From the NCBI GenBank assembly GCA_016181585.1, contig JACOYX010000018.1, forward strand, positions 1 through 38,509: a stretch of DNA of 38,509 nucleotides, written 5' to 3'. The position numbers and the translations under genes are program-made. The notes beneath the pieces were generated by a model. The model did not search any database and was not told where the DNA came from. It saw only the letters and a program-made list of their open reading frames with translations. Each line of letters begins with the position of its first letter. The first letter of the stretch is position 1. This DNA comes from Candidatus Sungiibacteriota bacterium (GTDB taxonomy: Bacteria; Patescibacteriota; Minisyncoccia; Sungbacterales; HO2-52-23). Below, in pieces: positions 22,538 through 28,822 of the stretch.

Positions 22538-23365
22538 ATGCAAGAAGAATATAACAAAGAACGGTTTCATCCGTTCGCTCAAAAAGAGGTTGCTACGCCG
22601 CATGACCCGGGAAAAGAATTTCAATCGTTTATGGAAGAACGCATGCGGCTTTTGCTTGCGGAAAAAGAAAAGTATCGCGGTCCCGATGTACCCGTAGAAA
22701 AAGTAATTTCTGCATTGTATACAGAAAGCGAAATTGGCCGTCTGGTTCGGGAAAATCCTCGATTGCAATTTAGCGTCACTCAAGCGCGGTGGACCGGATC
22801 ATTCGCGTCAATGGCGGAGCGGGGCAATTATTATCTTAAGAAAACGCTTGCGGAATTTTTATTTAACCAAGAAATGCGCAAAAAAATTAATCTCGGGCTT
22901 GCCTATCACGGAGTTGCGGGAGAGGTGATGGCGCGCCAAGTGCTGGAGAAAAGCGGTGTGGCAACCGCCCATGCGCGTCCCGAGCTTGATGCGGCATGCG
23001 GGGTTGATTTGTTGGGATATAAAAAAACAACAGACGGCAGGGAATTGTATTTTGCCATCCAAGTTAAAACAAATCCGACGAGCGAAAAAGTACGTTTTGA
23101 AAAATTGACGAAAGAATCAATGCAGGCGTTGAAAAGCAAAGCCGCTCGGTCGCCGGATGAAGAAGAAATTGTAAACAGCGGGGATCGGGCTATTGAAGCG
23201 GTATCACACATGCGGCGGTTATCTCAAAAACCATACGAGCCGTTTCTTTTTGTCATGCCATCAATTCGTGTGGTACATGACATGCATGCGGTTAATTTAG
23301 GGTCATTTAAGCTGAACCCGGAACTAGTTGACAAATTCGCTCAAAATGTGTTAAAAATTAGTTAG
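22538..23365 (+). CDS. Hypothetical protein with a PD-(D/E)XK nuclease-like motif
   Basis: GE...LDAACGVDLL...FAIQVKT; -10-like TACAAT just upstream favours ATG 22538 over 22427. Confidence 0.6.
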   Translation: MQEEYNKERFHPFAQKEVATPHDPGKEFQSFMEERMRLLLAEKEKYRGPDVPVEKVISALYTESEIGRLVRENPRLQFSVTQARWTGSFASMAERGNYYLKKTLAEFLFNQEMRKKINLGLAYHGVAGEVMARQVLEKSGVATAHARPELDAACGVDLLGYKKTTDGRELYFAIQVKTNPTSEKVRFEKLTKESMQALKSKAARSPDEEEIVNSGDRAIEAVSHMRRLSQKPYEPFLFVMPSIRVVHDMHAVNLGSFKLNPELVDKFAQNVLKIS

Positions 23366-23381
23366 CTATTAAAGGAAAAAT

Positions 23382-23567
23382 ATGGCCGACAATAATAAAC
23401 AAGATGATCTTTTTACGCCTTTTGGGGCGATGTCCATGACCAAAGAAGAAGAGGATGATTTTTTGGCAAATTTTGCAAAAGCGGGGGAAATTTTATTTGG
23501 AGAAGATGAATCATCCGTTTCTTCAGAAGAAAACAAAAAAACAAAGAAACAAAACAATCCGCAGTAA
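23382..23567 (+). CDS. Small acidic hypothetical protein
   Basis: 61-aa ORF with AAGGA RBS following the upstream gene. Confidence 0.55.
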   Translation: MADNNKQDDLFTPFGAMSMTKEEEDDFLANFAKAGEILFGEDESSVSSEENKKTKKQNNPQ

Positions 23568-23578
23568 AGCTCTGCGGA

Positions 23579-23636
23579 TTTTATATTCTCACCACCTAAT
23601 CGCGCGATCGCGCGATTAGGTGGTGAGAATATAAAA
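23579..23636. repeat. Perfect 58-bp palindrome
   Basis: ttttatattctcaccacctaatcgcgcga|tcgcgcgattaggtggtgagaatataaaa. Confidence 0.95.
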
Positions 23637-23639
23637 AAT

Positions 23640-23678
23640 AAACACCCCTCTCCAAAGAGAGGGGAATGGGTGTTTTTT
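23640..23678. terminator. Likely bidirectional terminator closing the minus-strand small-ORF unit
   Basis: aaacaccc / cccctct-ccaa-agagagggg / gggtgttttt, between convergent genes. Confidence 0.6.
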
Positions 23679-24036
23679 ACGGATACCATAGATAGTATCC
23701 TATCGCAACTCCGGCGAAAATGCCGAGAATCGCAAAAAGAACAGGGAGTGGGTTATGTATGGCTCCATGAAAGAGCCATACGATTACCTGCCACAGGTGG
23801 GGAATAAGCCATCGAAAGAAATTCCATACCTGCCCGATGACCCATGAAATCAGGCCGAGAGCGAGGTGGACAAAACCTTCGATGGTGCGGGCGGCGAGAC
23901 GGCCAGTCCACCGAAAATAGGGGGCGGGATTTCCGTGATTCCGATGAATGGAGATCACGAGTCCAAAACCCCAGAAGAAAACAACAAATCCTAGTACTGA
24001 CGCGACGAGCCGCCAGCAATAATCCATTTTTACCAT
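23677..24036 (-). CDS. Small membrane protein (last ORF of the array unit)
   Basis: 119 aa with several hydrophobic, Trp-rich helices; ATG overlaps the end of the upstream small ORF. Confidence 0.7.
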   Translation of the reverse strand: MVKMDYCWRLVASVLGFVVFFWGFGLVISIHRNHGNPAPYFRWTGRLAARTIEGFVHLALGLISWVIGQVWNFFRWLIPHLWQVIVWLFHGAIHNPLPVLFAILGIFAGVAIGYYLWYP

Positions 24037-24173
24037 CCTTGCCTTCTGTAAAACTCTTTCTGTTTTTTCCGGTTGTACCCCTTATTGCCCTTTGGTGATC
24101 CTTGCGGACCGCCAGTTTTTTGCGGCAAAGGAATTCTGCCGAGCTCAATTTTCCGTTTGGCTTCTTTCCTCAT
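24030..24173 (-). CDS. 47-aa basic peptide MRKEAKRKIELGRIPLPQKTGGPQGSPKGNKGYNRKKQKEFYRRQGW
   Basis: Manually translated (below the ORF-track cutoff); AAGGAG / AAAGG RBS; its end overlaps the next ATG. Confidence 0.6.
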   Translation of the reverse strand: MRKEAKRKIELGRIPLPQKTGGPQGSPKGNKGYNRKKQKEFYRRQGW

Positions 24174-24213
24174 CCTTTTCTCTTCTCCTTTTACTAGTTT
24201 TCAAAAATCTATC

Positions 24214-24275
24214 CTCCCATCAAAATTTCCGATTGTTCAGAATCTTTGATGGATGCTCAAGATTGTTTCTTGAGC
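24214..24275 (-). repeat. Double-hairpin array element, copy 6
   Basis: Minus strand GCTCAAGA-aacaa-TCTTGAGC ATCCATCAAA..TTTGATGGGAG, enclosed by AAAAATCT/AGATTTTT. Confidence 0.8.
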
Positions 24276-24313
24276 AGATTTTTTCATCTCCATTGTTTAA
24301 AAAAAGTCACAGA

Positions 24314-24580
24314 CTACTGCTTCCGGAAACCGAGAATGGCGGGAGTTTTTTGAACTGAAGATTTTACTGTCTCAAACTCCCGTTCCAGTAAACTCCACTC
24401 CTCGTCCGAAAGTTCGACGGTTGCGTCGATGTCGGGATATTTTTCTGGTGGAAACTTGTCGATGTTCCGTGCACCGATTTTGTTGAGTTTTTGGAAGAAC
24501 TCGAGTTGCTCTTCCATCCACTCGTGATAAGGCGGCAGTTCTTCCTCTACCATTTTCTTAAAATCACGAACGGTTCCCAT
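24314..24580 (-). CDS. Small acidic hypothetical protein
   Basis: 88 aa; AAGGAGG RBS. Confidence 0.75.
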   Translation of the reverse strand: MGTVRDFKKMVEEELPPYHEWMEEQLEFFQKLNKIGARNIDKFPPEKYPDIDATVELSDEEWSLLEREFETVKSSVQKTPAILGFRKQ

Positions 24581-24620
24581 GATTCCTCCTTTTTATTTTC
24601 CGTAAAGATCTTTAGGGTTT

Positions 24621-24679
24621 CCCCCTTTCAGAAATTTGAACTATTCAAATCTCTGAAAGGGAGGCGAGTCTTTTCTCGC
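24621..24679 (-). repeat. Double-hairpin array element, copy 5 (variant junction)
   Basis: GCGAG-aaaaga-CTCGC CTCCCTTTCAGAGATTTGAA-tag-TTCAAATTTCTGAAAGGGGG. Confidence 0.65.
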
Positions 24680-24984
24680 GCTCCGGTTTTTTGAAAGGGT
24701 TTGGGGCTCCCGGATAATATGCGTGCTCTCGCACTGCATCAGCGAAATGCTGTGGACATGTCTCCGTCGAGCGATGACAATAGCCCAATTATCCGAGGAG
24801 TTGTTCCCCTTACATTGCACCCTTGGGCAACGCACGCGGCTTGGCATTTCCGCGCGTGGGTTTTGGTGAGTGTCTTATATGACCCGGCTTTTATTATATG
24901 TTCAAGAGCTGCCAACTCTCTCCCATATACGCCCAAAACCGGGTGACACCACCTCTCGAGGGACCCATCGACCCCCGAACCCTT

Positions 24985-25197
24985 CTACTCGACAGGGCCG
25001 CCGCATTTGTGACCGCAATGATGACCAAATGCTTTTCCCTGCCGGCGGAGCAGCCGCTTCACTTTGCGTTCATCACGCTTGGTGAGTTTTAACGGCTTGC
25101 CCCTCGCAACCGCCATATCCTGGTAGCAGTCATAGCGGAACGACACGGAGATTTTTCTTCCCCGGTACCAAACCGATTCACCGCAATACCATGCCAT
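24985..25197 (-). CDS. Small basic Cys/His-containing hypothetical protein
   Basis: 70 aa; AAGGAGG RBS; upstream TGTTCTTTAA motif. Confidence 0.7.
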   Translation of the reverse strand: MAWYCGESVWYRGRKISVSFRYDCYQDMAVARGKPLKLTKRDERKVKRLLRRQGKAFGHHCGHKCGGPVE

Positions 25198-25447
25198 GGC
25201 GATCCTCCTTTTTCAAAATTTTAAATAAAATTAAAGAACAACGGACGAGAGTGTGGCGTGGCGGCGCCGTACTCCCTGGGGACACCGCGACTTGCGTCGC
25301 GTGTCCGCGGGCGATAATTTCATCATTTTTATATTTATCGCCTAGCCCCATTGATTTGCTACCGCCATAACTCCCCGAAGGGATTTCAAGTAATCCATGA
25401 TGAGCGCGGTTATTCAGGGGTTTGGTCCGCGCTACGATTGGGAACTT

Positions 25448-25527
25448 CTCCCATCAAAATCTTTATCTTTCCTTTTACAAAAGAAAAACTTTTATGGAAG
25501 CCCGAACTTTGATTTATTCGTTCGGGC
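25448..25527 (-). repeat. Double-hairpin array element, copy 4
   Basis: GCCCGAAC-N12-GTTCGGGC TTCCATAAAAG..TTTGATGGGAG; 22 bp at 25441-25462 identical to 26001-26022. Confidence 0.8.
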
Positions 25528-25639
25528 ACTTTTGCGCAATACGGTCTCGCTCATGCTTATAAGAATATGGCTAGTATTCTTTTATTTCACATGAATCCCC
25601 GTTCACGTGCCTTGCGTTGGCACGGGAGGTTTCGAAACT

Positions 25640-25936
25640 CTAGTATTCCGATTCCAGAGTTTCGGCAATCTTTCGATGCAATTCTCCACTTGCAATCATG
25701 CTTTTAGGCAGATTACAAAGGAATGCTCCGAGAGGATTGCATGACCCATCACATCTACCCCTTACAATGCTCGTAAGATGTTGTGCGTGGACCACGCGCT
25801 CTTCCTCCATATAAATGACGTCAAGCGAGTCTGCGTGGAAATCACCATTGCATCCGTGATTCCACTGGAGCTTTCCGTCATCTTCCGTCATACCATGTTC
25901 AGTGGTCTGACGATAAGTTCGGAATTTTCCTTGCAT
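25640..25936 (-). CDS. Small hypothetical protein (Cys/His-containing)
   Basis: 98 aa; AAGGGGGTG RBS. Confidence 0.7.
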   Translation of the reverse strand: MQGKFRTYRQTTEHGMTEDDGKLQWNHGCNGDFHADSLDVIYMEEERVVHAQHLTSIVRGRCDGSCNPLGAFLCNLPKSMIASGELHRKIAETLESEY

Positions 25937-26007
25937 GGTTCACCCCCTTTCTTTCTCCTGCGAGCCACCGCAGGATTGGTTTTGGTAAAAAAGAATTTTC
26001 GGAACTT

Positions 26008-26076
26008 CTCCCATCAAAATCTCTTAATGATTAAGAAACTTTGATGGGAGTCCGATGATCTTGTGAATCATCGGAC
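26008..26076 (-). repeat. Double-hairpin array element, copy 3
   Basis: GTCCGATGATT-cacaa-GATCATCGGAC TCCCATCAAAGTTTCTTAAT-c-ATTAAGAGATTTTGATGGGAG. Confidence 0.85.
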
Positions 26077-26090
26077 AAACTAGCAGTGTT

Positions 26091-26294
26091 TTACTCAGGG
26101 ATTTTGTTTGCCACCGCCGCGAGACGGTCGGCTTCCGCCCGGAGTATGTTCACTGCTTCTACCAACGCGACTTTGCAGCCACGCTGGTCGGGGTACACAT
26201 TCAAACCGCATCCTGCCTCCTGCGCTTTATGTAAGGCATTGAGCGTGTTACGTACCCCACTGAAAATTTCATGTACTAAACCTTCATTAACCAT
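26091..26294 (-). CDS. Small hypothetical protein (67 aa, MVNEGLVHEIF...)
   Basis: AAGGAGG RBS directly before ATG 26294. Confidence 0.7.
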   Translation of the reverse strand: MVNEGLVHEIFSGVRNTLNALHKAQEAGCGLNVYPDQRGCKVALVEAVNILRAEADRLAAVANKIPE

Positions 26295-26684
26295 CTTCTC
26301 CTCCTTTTGGTCCTCTTTTTGGTTGGCCAATGGTTTGTTTAAATTTTGTTTTGTATAAAAGAACTTTGGAATGGCCAGCGGAGCCGCAAAAAATACGCGG
26401 ACGCTGGCTATAAAATATGCGGCTAGGGCATCTCCGTTACTGGTCTCGCACAGGCTACCTCCTTGCCCGAGCTCCAGTTCCCACTAAAACCTTTGCGGCC
26501 GCTTACGCAAAGGGGTTTCCCAAGTATCCATCGGGGCAGCGATGGATCGCTCCCGTGGGAGTGCTTGGGATTCCGGCCTCAAAATGCCGGAAGGAGATGT
26601 TTCGCTTACCGGTTCTTACTGAAAGAACCGCTTGCGTCTCGAGGCCTCGTCCCCGAGAATAAGCAAAAACGTTGGGTTTCAGAT

Positions 26685-26774
26685 CTCCCATCGAAGCAAG
26701 AGAGCGTAACGAATAATTATATAAGGTTCGCTCTCGCGCTTCGATGGAAGCAGAAGGCGCTGGTCGCTTTCTGC
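26685..26774 (-). repeat. Double-hairpin array element, copy 2
   Basis: GCAGAAAGCG-accag-CGCCTTCTGC TTCCATCGAAGC..GAGAGCG..CGCTCTC..GCTTCGATGGGAG. Confidence 0.85.
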
Positions 26775-26787
26775 TGTTGCGGGGTTT

Positions 26788-26949
26788 TTACTTACTACGC
26801 GGGTCCTCTGCCTCCCGCGCCTCCAGCCAGCTTTCGCGGCTGGAGTGGACAACACCCCGATTGTCGGTGACATATTGATAATCGACGGGGCGGACCCCCT
26901 CAACGATCATCGCTAGCCGCTCCTCCAACGTAATTGTGGTGTTTTCCAT
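26788..26949 (-). CDS. Small hypothetical protein (53 aa, MENTTITLEERL...)
   Basis: AAGGAGG RBS before ATG 26949. Confidence 0.65.
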   Translation of the reverse strand: MENTTITLEERLAMIVEGVRPVDYQYVTDNRGVVHSSRESWLEAREAEDPRSK

Positions 26950-26993
26950 TTTCCTTCCTCCTTTTCTAAGAACATAGAGAGATTGTAAATTTT

Positions 26994-27115
26994 CTCCCAC
27001 CGAAGTAGCGACTGGTTGTTAGCCACTAGAAGTTAGTAATTTTTTAGTTTACTAGTGGCTAGGAACTAGTTGCTAGTCGCTATTTCGGTGGAAGGGGATA
27101 GAATTACCCATCCCT
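26994..27115 (-). repeat. Double-hairpin array element, copy 1 (promoter-proximal, longest stem)
   Basis: GGGAT..ATCCC CTTCCACCGAAATAGCGACT..TAGCCACTAG..CTAGTGGCTA..AGTCGCTACTTCGGTGGGAG. Confidence 0.8.
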
Positions 27116-27170
27116 CAATCCCCACCTCCTTCTTAAAATGTTTAAGTTTTTCCCAAACCGTTATGCCTAC

Positions 27171-27198
27171 ATTATACACAATCTATATAATTTGTCAA
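27171..27198 (-). promoter_or_regulatory. Consensus sigma70 promoter driving the small-ORF/hairpin unit
   Basis: Minus strand TTGACA-16 bp-TATAAT. Confidence 0.8.
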
Positions 27199-27439
27199 GT
27201 AGCGATGACATAATGAAGAAGTAATCCCTAAAAAATGGCTTATATAAAGCAAAAATTAGAGATAAATATTTTTATCTCAAGTAAAACATTTTATCTTTTT
27301 AAAACCGAAGATAATTAAAAATTAACTTACTCTTCACCAAAGGTGCATCGGATCTTTCCATTTTATAAGTAAGAAATAGTGTGAGAGGTATGGGCAAATA
27401 TCTAGACTGGCGCACTTCAGGCTTGAATTTTACATTTAC

Positions 27440-27468
27440 TTGACACCACATGTATTTATGTATATAAT
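27440..27468 (+). promoter_or_regulatory. Consensus sigma70 promoter (divergent)
   Basis: TTGACA-17 bp-TATAAT. Confidence 0.85.
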
Positions 27469-27473
27469 ATGGG

Positions 27474-27740
27474 TAGATGCCGCGCACTAAGGGCGGCATC
27501 TAACTGGTTCTTTCTGGAGGGTTCTTGAGTAAATGTCTTCTCTACTGGATTCCTGCGCATGGCAGGAATAACAGAAGAGGGTGCTCAAGGAATTGGTGAG
27601 CGAGGGCGTGTTCTCGACCACTTAAGTCCGACCGGACGGGTTTAGGACATGCTCAAAAAGTTTTTTCAAGCTCGCCATTTTTTTGTTCTCCTGTATGGCG
27701 AACAAAAAAAGAACCCCCTCCGATTCAGAGAGGAGGGATA
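27474..27740 (+). ncRNA. Putative structured non-coding RNA, family unknown
   Basis: Follows a perfect promoter; no ORF >=60 aa; multiple nested stems. Confidence 0.5.
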
Positions 27741-27881
27741 ATATAATGGGCGGCATGTAATTTTTTGGTCCCTTTTATATTTTTGGAAAATTTAAAAAAA
27801 AAGAAAAACGACGGAAAAAGAAAACAAAAACAAATTGGTATAATTAAAAGGGGACTACGCAAACGCGTACCCCCTTTATTT

Positions 27882-28634
27882 TTAATCAGTGGGTCTTATT
27901 AATTTCCAAAAAAGCATGAAAAGACTTCGAAAAGAATCCGCAACGCTCGAATGCTGGATAATAGTGCCTGATGGTTTACCTTTAAGGGCGGCAATTCCTA
28001 TCTTGTCATCATAGATGGTGAGATCGATATTAATGGGCAAATCCTGTGCTGACACATATTTTGATTCACGAAGCGATGCATTATCTTTTTCTTTCAAGAA
28101 GTCGCCGCGAGAAGAGGTATAGATAAGCGATGAATGGATGCCGTGTTTTACCCTTTCTGAAATATAAGTACTCGGATGTTCCGGAAAAATATCAAGCACG
28201 TTGTCCGCGGAGGCAATGGAATATATATGTTTTTCCTTTGTTGATAAAAAATCTTCCTGCATTCTCAAAAGCCCTTCTCTCCCTTCAAAAAAACGCACTT
28301 GCGGTTTTGAGTCTGAAAGGCGAAAGAGCGCCTCGAGTTCGGGGAGGAACTTGGCAAGTTCCTCTTTTTTGTGTTCGGCGGCTTTGCGTTCTTCTTCGAT
28401 GACGGACAGGAGCTGGTTCGGATCCTCCGCGATGAAAAATTGTTTTTTGCCTTTGGTCTGCGTGCTTGCGAGACCAAGTTTTTTCAAGCGTTCGATTTGG
28501 ACATAGGCGGTAGGGCGGTTGATTTCCGCTTTGGTGGAAATCTGGAGCATGGTCGAGGGACCGAGCTCGAGCATGGCAAGATATACCCGCGCCTCGTTTT
28601 CCGAGAGGCCCATTTGTCGGAGTTGATTAAGCAT
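27882..28634 (-). CDS. TrmB-family transcriptional regulator
   Basis: L..MGLSENEARVYLAMLELG wHTH; INRPTAY..IERL...GL; PQVRFFEGREGL; TIYDDKI. Confidence 0.92.
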   Translation of the reverse strand: MLNQLRQMGLSENEARVYLAMLELGPSTMLQISTKAEINRPTAYVQIERLKKLGLASTQTKGKKQFFIAEDPNQLLSVIEEERKAAEHKKEELAKFLPELEALFRLSDSKPQVRFFEGREGLLRMQEDFLSTKEKHIYSIASADNVLDIFPEHPSTYISERVKHGIHSSLIYTSSRGDFLKEKDNASLRESKYVSAQDLPINIDLTIYDDKIGIAALKGKPSGTIIQHSSVADSFRSLFMLFWKLIRPTD

Positions 28635-28822
28635 GTTGGATTTACTATAGTTTGAGTATACCATATAAAAATGGAAAGCGAAAATATAAAAACAAACTTT
28701 TAAACTTTAAACTTTAGGACTTACGCGTTTGAAAAGGAATACTTTTTTATATAGATTGCCGAGTCCAGATAGTAATCGTGACTCGCAATGACATCAAACG
28801 CGTAAGTCCTAACTATGTAGGC

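Follow-up and report, generated by a model that had tools for sequence, protein, structure and literature searches.

Anatomy of the locus

The window, a stretch of 38,509 nt (38.5 kb) from a Candidatus Sungiibacteriota bacterium, has a context of chromosomal housekeeping genes. Its minus strand carries an array of small ORFs and six copies, u1 to u6, of a double-hairpin unit (Table 1). The main features appear as the original prediction described them. The promoter is a perfect sigma-70 promoter, the ORFs of 53, 67, 98, 70, 88, 47 and 119 aa are all present, a terminator-like site ends the array, and all six units fold on the minus strand as two abutting hairpins. The shuffle z-scores of the units range from −5.1 to −9.8, and none of 200 shuffles folds as well. 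The two hairpins of u1 begin about 50 nt past the promoter, with no cistron ahead of hairpin 1.

Table 1. Features of the array and its upstream neighbour, in the order of the minus strand
Feature	Coordinates	Strand	Remarks
TrmB-like wHTH regulator, 260 aa	27882..28664	-	directly upstream of array; Pfam TrmB E 2.6e-14
array sigma-70 promoter, TTGACA / 16-nt spacer / TATAAT	27171..27198	-	consensus 12/12
unit u1: hairpin 1 27114-27095, long hairpin 2 27094-26994	26994..27115	-	-56.7 kcal/mol, z -8.5
53-aa ORF, strong SD	26788..26949	-	no family match
unit u2	26685..26774	-	fold z -6.4
structured non-coding RNA segment, u2 to 67-aa ORF	26365..26684	-	conserved in L003
67-aa ORF, strong SD	26091..26294	-	
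unit u3: hairpin 1 11 bp, hairpin 2 19 bp	26008..26076	-	z -9.8; model 44.2 bits
98-aa ORF	25640..25936	-	
unit u4	25448..25527	-	z -5.1; model 29.1 bits
non-coding stretch with weak double hairpin at 25272-25342	25198..25447	-	
70-aa ORF, basic, Cys/His clusters; recurrent array family	24985..25197	-	
non-coding stretch of about 300 nt, 70-aa ORF to u5	24680..24984	-	
unit u5, type B, CUUUCAGAG...CUGAAAGGG base	24621..24679	-	z -7.2; model 48.8 bits
88-aa ORF	24314..24580	-	
unit u6	24214..24275	-	z -6.1; model 42.1 bits
47-aa ORF, small basic protein, conserved Gly/Lys-rich core, recurrent family	24030..24173	-	
119-aa ORF, hydrophobic; start overlaps 47-aa ORF end	23677..24036	-	
intrinsic terminator closing array; 8-bp stem then T-run	23645..23664	-	

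Some details require correction. One clear unit had been placed before each of the first six ORFs, but u2 and u4 are not directly in front of theirs, being 391 and 251 nt upstream. The gap after u2 contains a conserved structured RNA, and that after u4 contains a structured part (25205-25350, z −2.9). The G-U wobbles had been said mostly to favour the minus strand; u3 to u6 do fold better on this strand, but the plus strand gives u1 and u2 a slightly better fold. The degenerate seventh unit suggested at 25272-25342 folds only weakly (z −2.2 and −2.9) and does not have the hairpin-2 consensus. Another candidate degenerate unit, before the 67-aa ORF, is not supported, with a fold z of −0.43.

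The six units lie in a single locus of the 867-kb genome. Scatter of the motif over the genome, which would have spoken against an array element, was not seen; the motif with a paired stem is confined to the array. The top covariance-model match in the genome is u5; the model's other matches, on C28 and C24, have no hairpin 1 and are AT-rich palindromes. The TrmB-like gene is present in one copy (tblastn).

Structure and covariation of the unit

Hairpin-2 stems are 19 bp long in the median, and 62 of 81 matches to the covariance model have 17–20 bp; the base of the stem reads CCAYC...GRTGG. The 3′ arm is rich in purines around a GGAG or GAGG core, and an A-rich tail comes after it; this SD-like arm is base-paired within the intact hairpin. 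The stem of hairpin 1 shares the pattern GNCRAG...CUYGNC among units. The stems are nearly perfect, without conserved extrahelical bases or an unpaired spacer.

Covariation had been named as a check on the unit, and hairpin 2 covaries strongly in both sets of sequences used. In a hand-collected set of 29 sequences from 16 loci, whose first ten pairs were selected for pairing, 83% of cells pair versus 64% in shuffles, both sides have changed in 130 cells versus 48, and the covariation score is 0.59 versus 0.28 shuffled, with slid controls at 0.19–0.26. For the 83 model matches, in an alignment (A6) itself fitted to the covariance model, 93% of cells pair and the score is 0.80 versus 0.28.

At three stem positions a wobble outnumbers every other pair (U·G in 43/83, G·U in 37/83 and U·G in 37/83). 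These would be A·C mismatches on the other strand; the wobbles favour the coding strand. The sense strand folds better in 73 of the 83 matches; as the model chooses whichever strand fits better, part of this preference is circular. A hairpin 1 of at least 6 bp ends 0–3 nt before hairpin 2 in 55/83 matches, compared with 42 of 490 control positions. In 35/81 matches, versus 54/467 controls, an SD-led start codon is found 15–60 nt past hairpin 2. The covariation, together with the fixed spacing to the start codon, indicates selection.

Genes and RNA segments between the units

Two of the seven ORFs, those of 70 and 47 aa, belong to small-protein families also present in other arrays, where their position and module context vary. 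The 70-aa ORF is 65% identical to ORFs in the arrays of loci L019 and L125 and has two other homologues among 5.8 billion proteins. The 47-aa family has homologues in 10 other loci and 171 representatives at E ≤ 0.001 among 1.84 billion; its protein has no match in the PDB. The 98-aa and 119-aa ORFs each find only themselves among 5.8 billion proteins. The 53-aa ORF matches no family and is unlike the 53-aa ORF at the same place in locus L003.

Much of what had passed for spacer is itself conserved structured RNA, which the earlier reading missed. The segment 26365..26684 is 76% identical to L003 over 343 nt, and 8 of its 73 predicted pairs carry compensatory changes relative to that locus; it has no match in Rfam. 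The stretches 25198..25447 and 24680..24984 display no similarity to the other loci.

A family across Patescibacteria

The double-hairpin unit is a widespread Patescibacteria family, a point that was also overlooked. The covariance model identifies same-strand arrays in 19 further Patescibacteria loci, often adjoining a TrmB-like gene. Matches lie on one strand only in 19 of the 21 other loci with at least 2 matches, and the unit strand is that of the SD-led ORFs in all 16 mapped arrays. TrmB homologues adjoin arrays in other genomes, and one was found near only 4 of the 12 stretches around unanchored model matches there. The array promoter is conserved in L003, and the arrays of L004, L009 and L013 open with TTGACA promoters resembling it.

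Individual units are conserved in different ways. Between u1 and its L003 counterpart the hairpin-2 base and about 17 nt of tail are kept while the interior is replaced; hairpin 2 of u2 is conserved in L003 with changes that preserve the structure. Over 55 nt, u5 and a unit of L023 are 84% identical, compared with only 41% for the TrmB homologue of that locus, and the u5 base motif was found in 4 other genomes out of 401 searched. Units are homogeneous within an array and lineage-specific between arrays. In L048, L013 and L019 whole units are near-identical, loops included, which points to duplication or gene conversion at the DNA level and not to RNA selection alone.

The element is matched by no described family, as the original prediction had supposed from inspection: the unit and the ORFs have no match in Rfam, Pfam, PHROGs, NCBIfam or PADLOC, and two exact unit patterns have none among viral contigs.

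A cis-acting element that may divide the transcript

The best reading of the unit, and one that we think has about an even chance of being right, is a cis-acting RNA element dividing a polycistronic transcript. One long RNA would run from the promoter to the terminator, and each unit would be the border between two segments, a segment being either a small ORF or a structured RNA. An endoribonuclease would cut at the unit. RNase III, with the approximately 19-bp hairpin 2 as its substrate, and RNase Y, with a cut where the two hairpins join, are the candidates. Hairpin 1 would remain as a stem-loop on the 3′ end of the upstream segment and protect it against 3′ exonucleases. Hairpin 2, or its exposed SD-like purine arm and A-rich tail, would protect the downstream mRNA from RNase J attack at its 5′ end. 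Stabilisation of a 5′ mRNA end by a stem-loop or an SD-like tract is a principle set out in section 16 of PMC3997798. A single promoter would in this way yield a set of small mRNAs and RNAs, each stable on its own and translated separately.

The genome encodes RNase III, RNase J and RNase Y, and RNase E/G was not found in this 86% complete assembly. The segments that hold conserved structured RNA instead of an ORF fit the release of RNAs from a precursor. The original prediction had left the choice between an RNA signal and a site for gene capture. The RNA signal is the better supported of the two, because of the positions at which G·U is commonest, the placement on the coding strand and the regular spacing to start codons. 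Some observations suit processing less well: the slight plus-strand preference of u1 and u2, the differing module number among close relatives, the near-identical units of L048, L013 and L019, the hairpin 1 of u1 without a cistron ahead of it, the last unit of L009 and L017, which no ORF follows, and the pairing of the SD-like arm in the intact hairpin.

The unit could instead be a DNA recombination site, folded as ssDNA or a cruciform, at which modules are inserted, lost or exchanged, the array being an integron-like cassette platform with an unrecognised recombinase. We consider this unlikely. In its favour, many ORFs have no detectable relatives, the recurrent families vary in position and module context, and conserved bases at the foot of a hairpin of variable length are attC-like. 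Chromosomal integrons carry homogeneous attC repeats, and units here are near-identical within arrays and lineage-specific between them. Among relatives with TrmB genes about 80% identical in DNA, the number of units varies (0 in L018, 1 in L004 at a contig end, 2 in L017, 3 in L009), and the single distal unit of L017 resembles a fusion of L009 units 2 and 3. The first ORFs of the window and L003 are unrelated, yet both have 53 aa between conserved units, a pattern that may also come from plain divergence with the constrained parts kept. Module number differs between relatives, but structural variants were not seen: contigs of four runs revealed no joints or indels, a weak test because the runs are of one study, one strain and low depth. 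The absence of an adjacent integrase and of an attC consensus, both already remarked, stands. The 38.5-kb window contains no recombinase, the only tyrosine recombinase found in the genome sits on another contig, and the units have no attC-type core, extrahelical bases or unpaired spacer in their nearly perfect stems. Y1 HUH transposase-like genes do not co-occur with the unit: the four in this genome lie elsewhere and share no sequence with the array, and such genes occur in 12/19 genomes with model matches versus 53/82 without. The wobbles favouring the coding strand and the regular start-codon spacing also speak against a recombination site.

Rather unlikely, too, is a reading in which a dedicated trans-acting factor binds the unit in nascent or mature RNA. 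Candidates for that factor are RNA polymerase and three locus-encoded proteins, the basic one of 47 aa, the Cys/His one of 70 aa and the TrmB-like one. Such a factor would act in processive antitermination (nut- or put-like) or in translational control of each cistron. Both stems do conserve sequence (the hairpin-1 pattern, the hairpin-2 base, fixed wobbles and A-rich tail), two abutting hairpins just downstream of the promoter are put-like, a small, very basic protein family recurs in arrays, and a TrmB-like gene adjoins many of them. However, the 47-aa family was seen in just 11 loci and that of 70 aa in 3; the short arrays of L009 and L017 have neither, and a TrmB homologue was found near only the minority of unanchored stretches given above. 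Antitermination would call for a single site in each transcript and not for one at every cistron. The stems of hairpin 1 resemble the terminator stem of the L004 array, but no U-run follows them, leaving little to antiterminate. The same resemblance, with a stem of this type plus a U-run closing L004, could make the units ordinary terminators or attenuators, or else selfish REP-like palindromes, without a specific role in the array. In favour are the GC-rich stem-loop of hairpin 1, placed after stop codons, and the capacity of repeats to spread locally, but this reading is very improbable. No unit scores as a minus-strand terminator, with 2–4 U in the 8 nt after hairpin 1; the motif keeps to one locus in its own genome; hairpin-2 sequence is conserved across lineages as distant as those of u5 and L023; and there remain the covariation and the fixed start-codon spacing.

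Comparison with known systems

REP/BIME elements, which are associated with RAYT transposases, form palindromic hairpins between genes, some of them inside operons, and can stabilise the mRNA upstream of them. The units are likewise intergenic palindromic hairpins in a genome with Y1 HUH genes, but REPs are scattered in many copies whereas the units occupy one locus, without sequence link to or co-occurrence with Y1 genes. Integron attC arrays, including the repeats of chromosomal superintegrons, are similar in being promoter-led and one-directional, with small, mostly unknown ORFs separated by variable-length imperfect palindromes that have conserved bases at the stem foot, are homogeneous within an array and vary in content between relatives. 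The attC core carries a GTT triplet; the foot here is CCAYC...GRTGG without a GTT-type core. The units further differ in having no adjacent or recognisable IntI, no extrahelical bases or unpaired central spacer, a second hairpin always attached, and wobbles that favour the coding strand.

The put RNA of HK022 comprises two stem-loops. The units resemble HK022 put and lambda nut in having two stem-loops 0–2 nt apart and a first copy shortly after the promoter; they differ in occurring once per cistron, not per operon, and no terminators that would have to be read through lie downstream of them. RNase III sites sit between the early genes of phages T7 and SP82. Shared with these are a strong promoter, a row of small genes and hairpins of about two helical turns between cistrons (here a median of 19 bp), whereas the context of the array is chromosomal housekeeping, PHROGs give no match and hairpin 1 is additional.

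Bacillus-type mRNA decay includes intercistronic processing, with RNase III or RNase Y cutting beside a stem-loop, and 5′ stabilisers of the SD-like 'STAB-SD' or polypurine kind. Agaisse and Lereclus (1996) and Hue et al. (1995) are among the references of the review PMC3997798. There, as here, a stem-loop or a purine tract resembling an SD is situated close to the 5′ end of a cistron and lacks its own start codon. The decay machinery is also alike, with RNases J, Y and III present and RNase E/G not found. In the Patescibacteria array, cutting at the units is a prediction and the purine tract is paired in a hairpin. Unlike the Bacillus-type stabilisers, the element here is a two-hairpin module of conserved sequence, repeated before nearly every cistron, phylum-wide and tied to one type of locus.

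Array architecture in the window

The minus strand of the array carries six two-hairpin units (u1–u6) and seven SD-led ORFs. The TTGACA-16-TATAAT promoter of the original prediction is present, and the terminator expected to end the array was found by the terminator scan. Each of the six proposed copies folds into a pair of abutting hairpins, at z-scores between −5.1 and −9.8 relative to dinucleotide-shuffled sequences. The units are 59–122 nt long and differ in sequence, and the spacing between them is 309–827 nt, with the SD-led ORFs inside. The complementary strand of the units folds as well. The suggested preference for the minus strand holds for u3–u6, in which this strand is more stable by 2.4 to 9.2 kcal/mol, whereas in u1 and u2 the plus strand is more stable by 2.5 to 4.1 kcal/mol. 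The degenerate seventh unit of the original prediction (~25272–25342) is weak (z −2.2 and −2.9) and does not have the hairpin-2 consensus; a different degenerate unit, suspected before the 67-aa ORF, was rejected (z −0.43). The minus-strand promoter scan of the array lists nothing besides the promoter at its head, so there are no internal promoters among its results.

The source genome (867 kb in 31 contigs, 86% complete; the window is contig C29) was scanned for the CCAYC...GRTGGG foot with an extended stem. Ten matches were found: four array units, the reverse complement of u3, and five chance matches elsewhere with stems of 3–5 bp. The array is therefore unique in its genome: paired units occur only here and are not scattered genome-wide.

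Features of the array, its surroundings and the comparison loci (L-numbers)
Feature	Position	Strand	Remark
Array promoter	27198–27171	minus	12/12 consensus match
Array terminator	23664–23645	minus	terminator scan
Further true terminator	27734–27714		terminator scan
TrmB-like gene	27882–28664		one flank of array; Pfam TrmB E 2.6e-14
Second perfect sigma-70 promoter	27440–27468	plus	12/12; opposite strand to array
Candidate small RNA	27440–27692	plus	~215 nt strongly structured after the promoter; −93 kcal/mol, z −6.2; ends in stem and T-run
Palindrome, perfect	23581–23634		~54 nt; z −12.6 on both strands
Short repeat inside u1 hairpin 2	27048–27086		depth up to 38
Structured RNA after u2	26365–26684	minus	~300 nt; 76% identity to L003 over 343 nt
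Diverged ~190-nt copies	L013 11940–12130, 12540–12730, 13436–13625		each just before a double-hairpin unit
Structured leader, ~420 nt	L004 820–1240; L009 2915–3340	minus	from array promoter to first ORF
Sigma-70 region 4/RNA polymerase alpha C-terminal domain fusion ORF	L078 7839–8369	plus	near an array; Pfam E 7.6e-18, 5.7e-20

Other structures lie close to the array. The gap separating the array promoter from the TrmB-like gene holds the candidate small RNA, which has no Rfam match. The palindrome separates the array terminator from that of the convergent genes, and its arms (CACCACC...GGTGGTGAG) recall the foot of hairpin 2. Several other contigs from the same metagenome runs match the interior of u1 hairpin 2, which has loose ends on either side and is a short repeat that other DNA of the sample also contains.

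The unit as a family across Patescibacteria

The TrmB-like protein, a 260-aa wHTH regulator encoded upstream of the array, served as the anchor for 13 metagenome loci, and the alignment of its homologues gave 80 genome loci. The relatives in the public genome collection carry the labels Parcubacteria or Patescibacteria. The closest relative is L003, with a TrmB 57% identical, the same promoter, a u1, a u2, and a ~300-nt stretch after u2 at 73–76% nucleotide identity. More distant loci have rows of the same two-hairpin module in lineage-specific sequence. L013 carries four units with the foot CUCUCUC...GAGAGGG, and such rows are also found in L019, L027, L048 and others.

By hand, 29 hairpin-2 sequences from 16 loci were aligned and their 19-pair structure was counted. 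The paired cells amount to 83% (64% in shuffled alignments), cells changed on both sides to 130 (48 shuffled), and the covariation score to 0.59 (0.28 shuffled; slid controls 0.19–0.26), thereby bearing out the covariation expected of the units; the first ten pairs are partly selected, because the collection rule required 9 of them to form, and pairs 11–19 are free of selection.

A covariance model was built from this alignment. In its own genome it finds the array and two AT-rich palindromes, on contigs C28 and C24, which were rejected as units, and nothing more. Among 101 relatives it has matches in 19 genomes (E ≤ 0.01), clustered in six of these. The window and 95 fetched loci (1.33 Mb) yield 83 matches at E ≤ 0.02. 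Their alignment has 93% of cells paired and a covariation score of 0.80 versus 0.28; it leans toward the structure because it was fitted to the model. An exact type-A pattern was too specific and matched none of 60 relatives.

At least one model match occurs in 21 of the 84 TrmB-anchored loci, and at least two in 15. The anchored arrays are downstream of the TrmB gene and co-directional in 12 loci, and upstream and divergent in L009 and L017. A TrmB homologue is present in 4 of 12 stretches around unanchored matches in other genomes, and the link with TrmB is therefore frequent, not universal.

Strand, spacing and sequence rules

Loci other than the window with at least two model matches, of any origin, have all of them on a single strand in 19 of 21 cases; the two plus-strand matches in the window are the reverse complements of u3 and u5. 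The match strand folds better in 73/83, by a mean of 5 kcal/mol, a figure that is partly circular because the model picks the strand. In all 16 arrays mapped, the strand chosen by the model is that of the SD-led ORFs, which is independent of the model's choice. Wobble is the commonest pair at three stem positions (U·G 43/83, G·U 37/83, U·G 37/83), and each would read as an A·C mismatch on the opposite strand. In the hand alignment, G·U cells number 70 versus 32 A·C cells.

Hairpin 1 is always on the 5′ side of hairpin 2; by the strict rule of a stem of at least 6 bp ending 0–3 nt before hairpin 2, it is present in 55/83 matches versus 42/490 controls. Its stem has the common pattern GNCRAG...CUYGNC. 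The stem of hairpin 2 has a median of 19 bp, with 17–20 bp in 62/81; the 5′ arm is pyrimidine-rich, and the 3′ arm is purine-rich with a GGAG or GAGG core, followed by an A-rich tail. An SD-led start codon lies 15–60 nt past hairpin 2 in 35/81 matches versus 54/467 controls. The wobbles, the ORF strand, the order of the hairpins, the start-codon spacing, and the stem and arm patterns together argue for a function of the unit in the sense transcript.

Content of the modules

No relative was detected for five of the seven ORFs in the window. The 98-aa and 119-aa ORFs retrieve only themselves among 5.8 billion proteins, and none of the fetched loci has a match for the 53-, 67- or 88-aa ORFs. The remaining two are members of recurrent families. 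The 70-aa ORF is 65% identical to ORFs within the L019 and L125 arrays. The basic 47-aa ORF belongs to a family present in ten other loci, with 171 representatives at E ≤ 0.001 among 1.84 billion. Other arrays have common families absent from the window, for example a ~100-aa zinc-ribbon-like ORF and small membrane proteins. Pfam, NCBIfam and PHROGs have no match for the seven array ORFs, and no library names these or the further shared families. With the 47-aa family as a profile, PDB yielded no match; the ESM Atlas gave unnamed clusters and one 21% DUF7230 lead.

Some modules contain no ORF. The conserved structured RNA after u2 has a long run of identical columns in its core; 8 of its 73 predicted pairs are compensatory against L003, and it belongs to no Rfam family. 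The ~190-nt copies of L013 share a conserved hairpin; pairing of its loop with a CUCAC tract further downstream is possible and could form a pseudoknot. The ~420-nt leader is common to the L004/L009/L017/L018 group at ~70% identity and, as scanned in L004 and L009, has no Rfam match.

Genomic setting

The genes around the array are housekeeping genes (PolA, Fpg, HolA, UvrB, Mur ligase, 2-oxoacid dehydrogenase E1 and E2, lipoate ligase), and thus the window is not an obvious phage or plasmid. The flank opposite the TrmB-like gene holds a convergent 312-aa ORF without known family. Two exact unit patterns had no match in viral contigs. The only PADLOC matches are weak HTH ones to the TrmB-like protein, leaving a defence-system reading unsupported. 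For the C-terminal domain of this protein, a catalytic PLD-like role was rejected: the invariant alignment columns hold no His or Lys. One comparison locus has, near its array, an ORF fusing two transcription-related domains (L078 in the table).

Function of the unit

The unit is a genuine, conserved element that had not been filed before. Most probably it is an RNA punctuation signal, acting in cis to divide a polycistronic transcript of small ORFs and RNAs. Genes for RNase III (contig C13), RNase J and RNase Y (contig C23) are present in the source genome, and a search for RNase E/G in this 86% complete assembly found none. In bacteria with such RNases, mRNA is stabilised by occlusion of its 5′ end or by a strong SD that has no start codon (PMC3997798, section 16). 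This repertoire and this mode of stabilisation underlie a proposal in three steps. The unit would be cut, the upstream fragment would be capped by hairpin 1, and the downstream fragment would be guarded by hairpin 2 or its exposed purine arm. The 19-bp median stem and the rnc gene are compatible with an RNase III processing site. The position 15–60 nt before start codons, the purine arm and the RNase J gene are compatible, and only that, with a 5′ mRNA stabiliser.

The arrays vary between relatives. L018, L004, L017 and L009 have TrmB genes ~80% identical in DNA; in this order, their unit counts are 0, 1 (at a contig end), 2 and 3. The distal unit of L017 has the position of L009 unit 2 and the sequence of L009 unit 3. 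Between the window and L003, the feet of the units flanking ORF1 are kept, though the two ORF1 products, both of 53 aa, have no similarity at E up to 100. Cassette exchange would give this pattern; so would a long divergence that keeps the constrained parts, or recombination between units. Of the gain and loss looked for between relatives, unit number varies (0–3); the contigs of four DNA runs of one study, a weak test, agree in sequence and show neither joints nor indels, and no RNA run is listed for the locus. That the unit is a DNA recombination site is unlikely in our view, given also the evidence for the sense transcript. A broader form of this idea is speculative and we would not expect it to hold: the arrays would be a gene-capture platform of Patescibacteria, independent of a recombinase or using an unrecognised one, in which the double hairpin is both the DNA site for swapping ORF or RNA modules and the RNA expression signal of each captured module. 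It would be a functional integron analogue, independently evolved in ultra-small symbionts and linked to the TrmB-like regulator.

A unit that is the site for a locus-encoded protein or RNA polymerase is quite unlikely; the TrmB-like gene accompanies many arrays, and not all. Plain terminators or selfish repeats are very improbable. The units do form stems and recur, and the minus-strand terminator scan lists none of them, in keeping with the lack of a stem followed directly by a U-run; REP/BIME elements are many copies dispersed over intergenic regions, with a RAYT flanked by the repeats, and the units are confined to one locus.

As an RNA punctuation signal, the unit would provide a testable model of how organisms with RNase J/Y/III adjust the amounts of many small proteins made from a single promoter. 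As an RNA motif family, common to distant lineages, it is new and strongly backed by comparative evidence. Patescibacteria genomes are tiny and densely coded, yet about half of this locus is structured non-coding sequence and ORFs without known relatives. The unit offers a handle on an unannotated locus type of uncultured bacteria, with a TrmB-like gene, a strong promoter, and small-ORF and RNA modules. Should units also exchange modules, this would explain the variable gene pool of reduced genomes.

Comparison with known systems

Among 4227 Rfam models, only a tRNA reaches the gathering threshold in the window. At E up to 5, nothing comes near threshold in 23300–27900, and eight related loci have no match, in agreement with the original view that the element belongs to no described family. 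Literature on Patescibacteria integrons/attC and on CPR structured RNA yielded no description of the unit; in the main text of 2026 preprints on non-coding elements, Patescibacteria, TrmB and CPR have 0 occurrences.

Integron attC sites have inverse core and core sites with a GTT triplet, an unpaired spacer and extrahelical bases. The unit has the foot CCAYC...GRTGGGAG and nearly perfect stems without conserved bulges. A Pfam scan of the 20 long ORFs of the window for an IntI next to the array found no recombinase, and the single PF00589 match of the genome is on contig C24. The predicted absence of both an attC consensus and a nearby integrase is thus confirmed. The genome also has four diverged ~230-aa paralogues with a Y1 HUH transposase-like domain, on C5, C2, C13 and C24 (L147–L150), and such genes are present in 65/101 related genomes. 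As the co-occurring recombinase sought they were rejected, since the four loci have no sequence in common with the array and do not co-occur with it. A CRISPR array consists of identical repeats and spacers of fixed length with cas genes; the units are variable, and their spacers hold SD-led ORFs.

On the defining features that were tested, the unit thus falls outside integrons, REP elements, terminators, CRISPR and all Rfam families. By analogy, the closest systems in working would be Bacillus-type mRNA decay, with its intercistronic processing and 5′-stabiliser elements, and phage early operons. Unlike the elements of these systems, the unit is a module of two hairpins that is conserved, repeated and bound to a single type of locus.
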